From: a virus
Taxonomy: Duplodnaviria > Caudoviricetes
Virus record (IMG/VR): IMGVR_UViG_3300024581_002364
Span: 4,870 to 68,869 of that record
Length of the DNA stretch: 64,000 nt
Direction: 5' to 3' (one strand)
This document shows, piece after piece, positions 23,167 to 62,337 of this stretch. The notes beneath the pieces are model-generated. The model made no database searches. It was not told where the DNA came from and saw only the letters and a program-made list of their open reading frames with translations. The stretch's first letter is position 1, and each line of letters starts with the position of its first letter. The position numbers and the translations under genes are program-made.

Positions 23167-23255
23167 GGGAGCGTGATGGAATTGGTAGACATTGCAGACT
23201 TAAAATCTGTTGATCAGTAATGATCGTGCGGGTTCAAGTCCCGCCGCTCCTACCA
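23167..23255 (+). tRNA. trnL: tRNA-Leu (anticodon UAA), CCA encoded
   Basis: Acceptor GGGAGCG/CGCTCCT, D-loop TGGTAG, anticodon arm GCAGA-CTTAAAA-TCTGT, long variable arm, T-arm GCGGG-TTCAAGT-CCCGC, 3' ACCA. Confidence 0.97.
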
Positions 23256-23979: not shown

Positions 23980-24628
23980 AGTTAAATTAACTTGGGCAAC
24001 ACAAGATGCCGAGTCACTCATTGTTGAGATGGCTCGTGTATCTGCTCCTAAAAATGCAAAGAACATGAGCACTGCACCACGTCTCATCAAGTATTTAATT
24101 AAACACAAACATTGGTCACCATTTGAAATGGCAAATATGTGTGTAGAGATACACACTACAAGAGCAATTAGCCCTCAAATATTGAGGCATAAATCTTTTT
24201 CATTCCAAGAATTTAGCCAACGATATGCTAATACCAATGAAATAGGACGTATTGAAATACCTCATCTTAGGGTTCAAGATACTAAGAACAGACAAAACTC
24301 CACTGATACTCTTGAAACTCTTTTGGGTAAGCCAGCAACTGCTGATTTATACCGTCGTGTTTCTATGCATTTTGAAGATGCAGAGCATTTGTACCAAGAA
24401 CTTCTTAGCTCCGGCGTGGCAAAAGAATCAGCCAGATTTATATTGCCTACCGCCGCACCTACAAAAATGTTTATGAACGGTACACTTCGTTCATGGTTGC
24501 ATTATCTTGACTTAAGAACCGATGTCTCAACACAACTTGAACACAGAGAGATTGCATTAACTATTAAAGATATTTTTAAAAAACAATTCCCTGTTATTTC
24601 AGAGGCTGCTTGGAATGAACTGTCGTAA
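23969..24628 (+). CDS. thyX: FAD-dependent thymidylate synthase
   Basis: HKHWSPFEM and signature RHKSFSFQEFSQR; likely start MSPEVKL. Confidence 0.95.
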   Translation: MSPEVKLTWATQDAESLIVEMARVSAPKNAKNMSTAPRLIKYLIKHKHWSPFEMANMCVEIHTTRAISPQILRHKSFSFQEFSQRYANTNEIGRIEIPHLRVQDTKNRQNSTDTLETLLGKPATADLYRRVSMHFEDAEHLYQELLSSGVAKESARFILPTAAPTKMFMNGTLRSWLHYLDLRTDVSTQLEHREIALTIKDIFKKQFPVISEAAWNELS

Positions 24629-24950
24629 ATGCAATTCTAAAAATACTAAAGTTACAGTTACTGAACATAAGAAAGAAGTAACTTGGCGGTACTGTAAATG
24701 TTTAGATTGTAATACTAAGTTTAAAACTATTGAGCGATATGAATATCAAAAACGTACACCATTAAATCTGGTGCCTATACCAAAGGGTTGTGCTAATTAC
24801 AATTCACGTTTTACACCGGAAGATATTTATGACATCCGTAAACGATATGAGAAAGGTGATAGTGCTGCACAAATAGCTCTTAAATATAGTTGCGGACGGT
24901 CTACAATCCAAAGGATTGCGACCTACAAAACTTACAAAGATGTTATTTGA
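24615..24950 (+). CDS. Zn-ribbon (NrdR/Ogr-like) plus HTH protein
   Basis: CRKC...RYCKCLDCNTKFKTIE, then FTPEDIYDIR...SAAQIALKYSCGRSTIQRI. Confidence 0.65.
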   Translation: MNCRKCNSKNTKVTVTEHKKEVTWRYCKCLDCNTKFKTIERYEYQKRTPLNLVPIPKGCANYNSRFTPEDIYDIRKRYEKGDSAAQIALKYSCGRSTIQRIATYKTYKDVI

Positions 24951-25118
24951 AGATGCACTAGATCTTATCTACCGAGGACAAACAAATGTTGCAGTCATGG
25001 CTAACAAAACAGGCGTCTCATTGGAAGAAATGAAACGCCTGTTTAATTTATATGTAAGTCAACGTCCTATTGATCCAGATGTTTGGAGAGCAGACGTTGA
25101 ACTTGGTTGGCCTTGGGT

Positions 25119-25277
25119 TTAAACAATGCTATCTGGATTATTTTTCATGCGTAAACGGTCAAGTTTTGCTTCAAATTCCCGGCGTTGTTCTTGCAAACGT
25201 TGGTTCAAAAGATATGCAGCCATGGGATCAGGACGCTCGTACTTGACTCCACGATACGTCAACACTGTTTGTGCCAT
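25119..25277 (-). CDS. DUF4278 small protein, GifB/IF17-like (52 aa, not in ORF track)
   Basis: MAQTVLTYRGVKYERPDPMAAYLLNQRLQEQRREFEAKLDRLRMKNNPDSIV; LTYRGVxY is the DUF4278 hallmark; riboswitch directly upstream. Confidence 0.8.
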   Translation of the reverse strand: MAQTVLTYRGVKYERPDPMAAYLLNQRLQEQRREFEAKLDRLRMKNNPDSIV

Positions 25278-25294
25278 GATGTTCTCCGCTTTAA

Positions 25295-25351
25295 CTCTGG
25301 TTCCCGTTCCGTAACCAGATGAGATGCGCCAGCACTATAGCTGGTGAACGT
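25295..25351 (-). ncRNA. Glutamine-II riboswitch (Downstream-peptide motif)
   Basis: CGUUC/GAACG P1, CCAGC/GCUGG hairpin, CGCA junction, GGAACGGG, pseudoknot UCUGGUU/AACCAGA; TATAAT at 25364-25359; DUF4278 gene downstream. Confidence 0.85.
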
Positions 25352-25380
25352 ACTTATTATTATAGTTCAGCTAAACAACC

Positions 25381-25779
25381 ATGCCCGGTACTCGCAGACA
25401 ACCACGCACAAACCTCTATTCCACACAGCAAGTGTTGCAGTCCACAATGATGGCTCGTTACACTCTTATGCGTTATGTTAAAGACGGTAGGTTTCCTAAA
25501 CCAGCAATTAAAGCTGGTGACATTGACTCTCGTGGTGCTGATTGGTATTCCAAAAAAGATGTTGATAAATGGTTAAAAGATAACTCTGATTTAATTTTAT
25601 GGAAACGAAAACGCATTGAAGAAGATATTACTTTAACAATTTCAGCAGATGATTTGAAAAAAATACGAAAAGCATCTGAAGTATTAATGTGTGACATTGA
25701 ACCATTTATTATTGAAGCTGCAATCTGGAAAGCAAAACTTATTCTTAAACAAACAGAGATGAATACTAATTACTATTAA
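25381..25779 (+). CDS. AlpA/excisionase-like HTH protein with a possible C-terminal RHH
   Basis: LYSTQQV...RYTLMRYVKDGRFPKP...WYSKKDVDKWL. Confidence 0.65.
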   Translation: MPGTRRQPRTNLYSTQQVLQSTMMARYTLMRYVKDGRFPKPAIKAGDIDSRGADWYSKKDVDKWLKDNSDLILWKRKRIEEDITLTISADDLKKIRKASEVLMCDIEPFIIEAAIWKAKLILKQTEMNTNYY

Positions 25780-62001: not shown

Positions 62002-62337
62002 TCAACCAAAGAAAGGCTGAGAATCGTCTTCATCCTCAAGAAGATCTTCTTGGCTCATCATTGTTAAAGCCAGCTGAGCAAGTTCAATATCAGTAGGGAT
62101 ATCAAACTCCATCTCAATATCTTCTGCTTGGAGCATGTCTTTGATGGCTTGAAGCTCCATCAACCGTTTGTGATAAAGATTAAGAAGAGCAAGACGTAAT
62201 TGATCCCACGTCATCTCTTGTGAGGCGATTTCAGCCTTTCGTATTGCTAATTGGAGATGCAAAGGCATATCCATTTCTCTCATTTTATCGAAACCGCCCA
62301 TTTGAATATGAATCAGCTTTAAACATTCTAAGTCCAA
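62002..62337 (-). CDS. nblA: NblA-like phycobilisome degradation protein with an acidic C-terminal extension
   Basis: MPLHLQLAIR...QEMTWDQLRLALLNLYH...KDML matches NblA L.LEQQF.IR...Q.MS.DQA..FLV.LYEQ; true start probably at 62301 or 62274. Confidence 0.7.
   Translation of the reverse strand: MDLECLKLIHIQMGGFDKMREMDMPLHLQLAIRKAEIASQEMTWDQLRLALLNLYHKRLMELQAIKDMLQAEDIEMEFDIPTDIELAQLALTMMSQEDLLEDEDDSQPFFG

Follow-up and report, generated by a model that had tools for sequence, protein, structure and literature searches.

The type-2 glutamine riboswitch (Glutamine-II, or Downstream-peptide RNA) is a class limited to picocyanobacteria (PMC6316151). In a GFP fusion, a cellular switch of this type gave an ON response to nitrogen excess (PMC6212724), and the crystal-structure paper describes how glutamine stabilises a pseudoknot, which competes with a structure occluding the ribosome-binding site (PMC6698751). 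A 2017 survey, which found only two glutamine aptamers in (cyano)phage genomes, came to the conclusion that riboswitches are rarely used by phages (PMC5473149). Glutamine riboswitches have been reported in T4-like cyanophages (PMC9602691, PMC9964418), and glnA-type aptamers in the OM43 phage Melnitz and in pelagimyophages (PMC9004378). Both the aptamer class with its pairing to YRG peptides in picocyanobacteria and the existence of phage-borne glutamine aptamers are already known. The Rfam/Wikipedia page on Downstream-peptide RNA reportedly lists 'one phage'. Neither the main text of Weinberg 2010 nor its 200 searchable supplementary files were found to mention this RNA in a phage. What is specific to the locus described here is the S-EIV1-like lineage that carries it, its fixed antisense site in the replication module, a promoter abutting the aptamer and the peptide subfamily that follows.

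The locus lies in a 68,869-bp IMG/VR virus record, estimated to be 87% complete, of which a 64-kb stretch, called the window in what follows, was analysed as a whole. The best explanation of the observations, to which we give a probability of about 0.7, is that a self-contained nitrogen-sensing cassette of an S-EIV1-like cyanophage is encoded here, in which the riboswitch would act as a translational ON switch. The features of the cassette and of its surroundings are the following.

25359..25364, minus strand: -10 promoter box TATAAT, read straight from the sequence.
25295..25353, minus strand: Glutamine-II (Downstream-peptide, type 2) riboswitch aptamer, from the RF01704 match.
25346..25350, minus strand: 5' pseudoknot strand CGUUC, whose partner is GAACG at 25305-25309 and whose proposed alternative partner is the Shine-Dalgarno (SD) region.
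25329..25344, minus strand: P1 hairpin of 5 bp (CCAGC/GCUGG, 25344-25340 with 25333-25329) with a 6-nt loop, from the cmscan alignment.
25296..25319, minus strand: P2 hairpin of 7 bp (25319-25313 with 25302-25296) with the 10-nt loop ACGGAACGGG, which bears the 3' pseudoknot strand.
25281..25287, minus strand: SD sequence GGAG (25287-25284) which together with AAC reads GGAGAAC, 6 nt before the ATG.
25119..25277, minus strand: ORF of the 52-aa mini-gene (ATG at 25277), encoding LTYRGVKY in a predicted beta-hairpin, then a long charged helix.
24916..25122, plus strand: convergent 68-aa gene, next to the cassette in relatives too.
25381..25779, plus strand: divergent 132-aa gene with weak HTH/excisionase-like matches, adjoining the cassette in some relatives.
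24756..24774, minus strand: terminator-like hairpin and T-run, from a pattern scan only, with no evidence of function.

The promoter box, the Downstream-peptide fold and the 52-aa ORF with LTYRGVKY had been claimed in an earlier note on this DNA, and all three are found on the minus strand at the positions listed above. The same note had described the mini-gene as antisense to the early operon, which was borne out, the cassette pointing against the flanking replication-module genes in every relative examined. A TAnnAT hexamer stands 5-7 nt ahead of the aptamer in all relatives and, from the position of the -10 box, the mini-gene transcript would start at about 25351-25353, i.e. at the 5' edge of the aptamer. 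A -35 consensus was not found for this promoter, and neither the window nor five relatives contained an NtcA box (GTA-N8-TAC).

On the upstream side, the ATG of the 132-aa gene sits 16 nt from the -10 box of the mini-gene. On the downstream side, the stop codons of the mini-gene and of the 68-aa gene, a gene to which no Pfam or PHROG family could be assigned, overlap by two bases (25120-25121, in TTAA). By pattern scan, the first terminator-like site past the mini-gene is met about 345 nt beyond its stop codon, within an opposite-strand 111-aa gene. The latter (24615-24950, plus strand) has its last 35 nt in common with the beginning of the 68-aa gene and encodes an N-terminal zinc ribbon (NrdR-like, DM-like) together with a resolvase-type HTH; its PHROGs family is labelled HNH endonuclease. 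About 2 kb from the cassette, a tRNA-Leu(TAA) with a long variable arm was observed at 23167-23255 (plus strand), and an equivalent tRNA is present at a similar distance in six of six related loci.

When the region was analysed by cmscan with the Rfam Downstream-peptide model, the fold proposed in the earlier note was recognised: RF01704 matched positions 25353-25295 over the full length of the model (1-60) with 44.4 bits, the gathering score being 33. A scan of 501 nt gave an E value of 1.2e-9 and a search of the entire 68.9-kb record one of 3.9e-11; our own aptamer covariance model, R1, gave 41.6 bits to the same RNA. The pseudoknot consists of five Watson-Crick pairs between CGUUC (25350-25346) and GAACG (25309-25305), with A.G mismatches flanking it on both sides. 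The earlier description of P1, a hairpin and a 7-bp pseudoknot was thus right for the stems and wrong for the size of the pseudoknot, the seven pairs being those of P2. The pseudoknot strands (5' CGUUC and the GGAACG of the P2 loop) occur without any variation in the window and in its relatives, as does the GCGCA junction; these elements agree with the family and, being invariant, give no covariation support.

Covariation was found in the two stems. In an alignment of eight related phage aptamers that was guided by R1, and that consequently leans towards the structure, 97.6% of the P1 and P2 stem cells form standard pairs and seven of 11 pairs show changes on both sides. The observed covariation score was reached by none of 500 shuffles and, when partner columns were slid by one to three positions as a control, pairing fell to 25-60%. 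The third pair of P1 is A-U, C-G or U-A across the relatives. In P2, both sides change in six of the seven pairs, with variants such as CUGG/CCAG, CCAG/CUGG, CCGG/CCGG and CUAG/CUAG. The alignment guided by the covariance model was used in place of a MAFFT alignment, in which the stems were out of register. By covariance model and by covariation, the RNA at 25295-25353 is a type-2 glutamine riboswitch, which would be expected to bind glutamine as other members of its class do.

From this layout, the following scheme of expression can be proposed. The host RNA polymerase would start at the sigma-70-type -10 box and produce an mRNA beginning with the type-2 glutamine riboswitch. When glutamine is absent, access of the ribosome would be hampered by a duplex between the 5' strand GUUCACC and the SD region GGAGAAC. 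When glutamine is present, the 5' strand would instead be taken up into the 5-bp pseudoknot that it forms with the P2 loop, which would free the SD and allow the 52-aa protein to be made; this amounts to a translational ON switch. The protein would in turn most likely bind a host nitrogen-control protein, for which glutamine synthetase (GS) or a partner of the PII T-loop are the leading candidates. Because P2 and the ATG are only 17 nt apart, with no hairpin between them and too little room for that of a terminator, control is deduced to be translational. The ON direction, as well as the competition between the pseudoknot and occlusion of the ribosome-binding site, is proposed by analogy with the cellular switch (PMC6212724) and with the crystal-structure model (PMC6698751).

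The putative pairing of the 5' strand with the SD was considered further. GGAGAAC is complementary to GUUCACC at six of seven positions and, for this reason, resembles the loop strand GGAAC; the closest relatives all have the longer string AGCGGAG(A/G)AC unchanged. Of 31 distinct Gln-II leaders of viral contigs, 15 have G(A/G)AC no more than 16 nt upstream of the ATG, compared with four of 60 SD-bearing gene starts taken from the same contigs as controls. The alternative duplex GUUC-A-CC/GG-A-GAAC has a calculated energy of -5.6 kcal/mol, only about 1.7 sd better than the controls, whose mean is -3.3 with an sd of 1.3. Minimum free energy folding, with the pseudoknot strands either free or blocked, showed no clear change in SD accessibility. 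Taken together, these data suggest with moderate strength a strand exchange, in which the 5' strand would cover the SD in the off state and join the pseudoknot in the on state.

Sixteen homologues of the 52-aa protein, with 53-94% identity, were retrieved among 5.8 billion clustered proteins, and two blocks, LTYRGV.YER and QR.EFE.KLD, are invariant in the family. Among five orthologues, differences at the three codon positions numbered 135/90/228, and 128 of the 280 changed codons are synonymous. Given the excess at the third position and the invariant motifs, the mini-gene is coding, conserved and under purifying selection. A profile search of 1.84 billion representatives returned only 25 proteins at E <= 0.001. 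All full-length matches were 44-83 aa long; longer matches (up to 955 aa) covered part of the profile only, and several of them proved on inspection to be true DUF4278/IF17-type proteins, which match only via their repeated N-terminal motif.

The relation to DUF4278 is confined to that motif. The LxYRGxxY motif occurs as a single copy (LTYRGVKY), is invariant in the family and aligns to the repeats of true DUF4278 proteins. The match of the mini-protein to DUF4278 (PF14105) covers residues 6-20 on profile positions 3-17 of 57 and, with 15.5 bits (E = 0.023), did not reach the cut-off of 25.3; all 17 family members match this profile at E <= 1, the best at 7.7e-4. AlphaFold2, used with the 17-sequence alignment, predicts strands at residues 5-8 and 11-14 followed by a helix at 18-46 (mean pLDDT 80), and places the R-G of YRGVKY at the turn of the beta-hairpin. 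A PDB sequence search, Foldseek on the PDB and the ESM Atlas gave no informative match for the mini-protein.

In cellular and isolate genomes, relatives of the peptide were not recovered. The helix half of the peptide (QR.EFE.KLD type) was not found in 301 host-order (picocyanobacterial) genomes, in which there were only motif matches of 17-21 bits; the peptide pattern had no relative in 185,579 species genomes, and neither tblastn of the peptide nor blastn (distant mode) of the cassette matched any of 50,697 GenBank phages. In these searches, the peptide subfamily was seen only in viral or unassigned metagenomic DNA. The best explanation, judged from sequence and predicted structure, is that the mini-protein belongs to the YRG (DUF4278-type) small proteins and forms a viral branch among them, made of one YRGxxY beta-hairpin and then a charged helix.

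For the target of this protein, an IF17-like role was considered, in which the peptide would be a GS inactivating factor and the phage would shut off host GS at high glutamine. The pairing of riboswitch and gene is that of gifB/IF17 and of the Prochlorococcus 'IF17-like' DUF4278 genes (PMC6212724), the helix is rich in Arg and Lys, as might suit factors that bind electrostatically via arginines (PMC6316151), and every one of the 17 family members touches DUF4278. However, the DUF4278 (GifB/IF17-like) assignment made in the earlier note stands for the 15-residue LTYRGVxY motif and fails at the Pfam cut-off, and the weak likeness to IF7/IF17 which it had seen in the C-terminal helix was not borne out: when the family profile was compared by hhalign with an IF17-type protein (P0038, carrying DUF4278 at 88.9 bits and an IF7-like tail), the alignment was confined to the 15-residue YRG motif, at a probability of 30%, and the helix showed no similarity to the IF7-like GS-binding domain. 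In IF17, moreover, it is the IF7-like domain that inactivates GS, while the DUF4278 half mainly stabilises the protein and is dispensable for inactivation (PMC6316151). GS comes into question because IF17 has DUF4278 as its N-terminal half, and the argument is weakened by this half being dispensable. IF-mediated control of GS has also been reported as absent in marine picocyanobacteria (PMC6316151). An IF17-like GS inactivating factor is therefore doubtful.

A second proposal is that the YRGxxY hairpin mimics the PII T-loop and competes for a PII partner (NAGK, PipX, phosphatase or transporter), by which host nitrogen signalling would be uncoupled during infection. YRGxxY is present in 355 of 429 Downstream-peptide ORFs, as in the PII T-loop, whose tip it forms (Weinberg et al. 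2010, PMC2864571 supplement), and the AlphaFold2 model would expose R-G at the tip of the hairpin. The likeness nevertheless amounts to six residues, and PII chains were absent from the results of the PDB sequence search; this mimicry is unlikely. The probability left beyond the GS and PII-loop readings falls to some other host target. More broadly, and tentatively, since the odds are against it in this precise form, the YRG hairpin plus helix may be a phage-specific effector, made only at high host glutamine and acting on nitrogen control through GS or a PII T-loop partner.

The phage itself was identified from its hallmark genes. The record encodes a terminase, a family-A DNA polymerase, ThyX, GP88 and SSB, and its nearest isolate is Synechococcus phage S-EIV1 (KJ410740), with amino-acid identities of 80.5% for TerL, 64.5% for PolA and 60% for GP88. 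The order thyX - Zn-ribbon/HTH - GP88 - PolA is common to the window and S-EIV1, and marine S-EIV1-like genomes form a recognised cyanophage group (PMC5332604). Where the window has the cassette between the 68-aa and the 132-aa genes, S-EIV1 has just 55 nt, and no RF01704 match was found anywhere in its genome. The record showed neither hli (PF00504) nor PTOX (PF01786), and a 111-aa ORF at 62002-62337 (minus strand) belonged to no Pfam family at E <= 0.01. The TerL of the window (508 aa) aligns to S-EIV1 (KJ410740.1, 54080-56617) as two pieces over 2538 bp, from which it seems that about 1 kb (possibly an intron, an intein or a homing element), absent from the window, has been inserted into the terminase gene of S-EIV1.

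Relatives of the cassette were obtained from viral contigs by an alignment-based search, a single-sequence search having given no match. In each of six IMG/VR contigs with a homologue of the mini-protein, RF01704 scored 43-57 bits and its match ended 17 nt before the ATG. The same site and the same antisense orientation were observed in nine related loci. In all the relatives examined, the cassette is located between thyX/the 68-aa gene on one side and the 132-aa gene, GP88 or PolA on the other. Among the best 80 GP88-bearing IMG/VR loci, the aptamer was present in 13, all of them within the 35 closest (GP88 identity >=51%), and in all 13 it lies upstream of GP88 on the opposite strand. Each of these 13 cassettes has a TAnnAT 5-7 nt before the aptamer, GGAG(A/G)AC as SD region and a peptide of 47-50 aa in which YRGxxY near the N-terminus precedes a charged segment (LTYRGxxY in 12 of 13). 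Because 13 of the 35 closest relatives carry it at this place and S-EIV1 does not, the cassette is an accessory module at a fixed site of the S-EIV1-like lineage.

R1 was also applied to 80 cellular loci picked by a loose sequence pattern, of which it accepted 29. Twenty-seven of them belong to Synechococcus, Prochlorococcus, Parasynechococcus or Aphanocapsa feldmannii, a range that agrees with the published restriction to picocyanobacteria (PMC6316151); the other two are one marine MAG and a locus of Streptomyces sp. TRM49041. The latter (L179, 5521-5575; 26.3 bits, 73% GC) is the only named non-cyanobacterial locus accepted and is probably a chance match. In view of the kinship to S-EIV1 and of the taxonomic range of the riboswitch, the host is very likely a picocyanobacterium, either marine or freshwater.

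The patchy distribution, with 13 of the 35 closest relatives carrying the cassette and S-EIV1 being devoid of it, would also suit a host-derived passenger with no role for the phage, or a cassette acting by antisense or convergent-transcription interference on the replication-module genes, all the more so as its 3' end is antisense to the 68-aa and 111-aa genes and the first terminator-like site lies 345 nt downstream. Such a reading is improbable. Phages whose PolA proteins share just 59-72% identity have the cassette at one and the same locus and in one orientation, and the peptide, with its invariant blocks, is under purifying selection. The absence of this peptide type from the 301 picocyanobacterial genomes and, by pattern, from the 185,579 species genomes argues against a recent host copy, and a riboswitch that acts on translation would not gate an antisense RNA.

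That the RNA at 25295-25353 resembles a riboswitch by chance, as could have been supposed from a default whole-window Rfam scan in which the aptamer did not appear, is refuted and has a negligible probability, given a score 11 bits over the curated cut-off with E near 1e-9 to 1e-11, the matches and compensatory changes in relatives, and a position exactly before a YRG ORF, as in the RF01704 family. That default gathering scan listed only a tRNA, the aptamer having been missed through the speed filter and not through a low score; other short riboswitches may escape whole-window default Rfam scans in the same way.

Comparable leaders are present in other viral contigs. In an IMG/VR pattern scan, in which 93 loci were searched with R1, aptamers were accepted in at least about 60 of the 93, these counts being lower bounds and chance matches being included. 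Most of the Gln-II-type matches listed precede YRG peptides. The commonest Gln-II-led viral peptide among the matches listed, found at 12 loci or more, is 39 aa long and has its YRG motif near the C-terminus after a helix, an order that is the reverse of that in the window peptide; its leader reads CGGGAACC ahead of the ATG. At eight other loci, a second CGTTCA directly follows the first GGAACGG and a second GGAACGG is present further on. This pattern fits glnA-type or tandem glutamine aptamers rather than Gln-II; some of these matches then lead into a YRG ORF.

What emerges is a whole lineage of cyanophages in which a canonical glutamine-II switch is an accessory module, both conserved and selectable. 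In contrast to the two aptamers of the 2017 survey (PMC5473149), the IMG/VR pattern scan gave dozens more, mostly before YRG peptides. With its single motif and single helix, the small viral form lends itself well to the search for the target of the YRG/DUF4278 small proteins of marine picocyanobacteria, a question standing since 2010. If the proposed explanation is true, S-EIV1-like cyanophages would read the nitrogen status of their host directly through an RNA and adjust their takeover, nitrogen status would feed straight into the infection physiology of abundant primary producers of oceans and lakes, and the minimal peptide would be the first tool with which the role of the orphan YRG/Downstream peptides in picocyanobacteria could be approached by experiment.

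Among known systems, the Prochlorococcus MED4 PMM1846/Yfr6 type (PMC6212724, PMC2864571) is close, with the same aptamer class directly before a short LTYRGxxY ORF. The picocyanobacterial type-2 switch was shown to be ON (PMC6212724), and its host group is likely also that of the window phage. Unlike this system, the window cassette is encoded by a phage, its transcript would, by the -10 box, start at the aptamer edge and not about 20 nt upstream, no NtcA box was found for it, and the helix half of its peptide was not found in the 301 host-order genomes. In the gifB (IF17) leader of Synechocystis sp. PCC 6803, a glutamine-ON translational switch precedes a protein starting with YRG, as is proposed here; however, its aptamer has the type-1 fold (RF01739), whereas that of the window is type 2, and IF17 has several YRG repeats and an IF7-like C-terminal GS-inactivating domain that is missing from the phage peptide. 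S-EIV1, a high-arctic lake isolate, is kin by hallmark genes and gene order but is without the cassette. The glutamine aptamers described earlier in phages belong to myoviruses and, where the class was stated, to the glnA type, and their downstream genes were not analysed or the target was tmRNA. By contrast, the aptamer of the window is of the Gln-II class and belongs to the S-EIV1-like lineage, and its promoter and SD sequence are defined and its peptide conserved.
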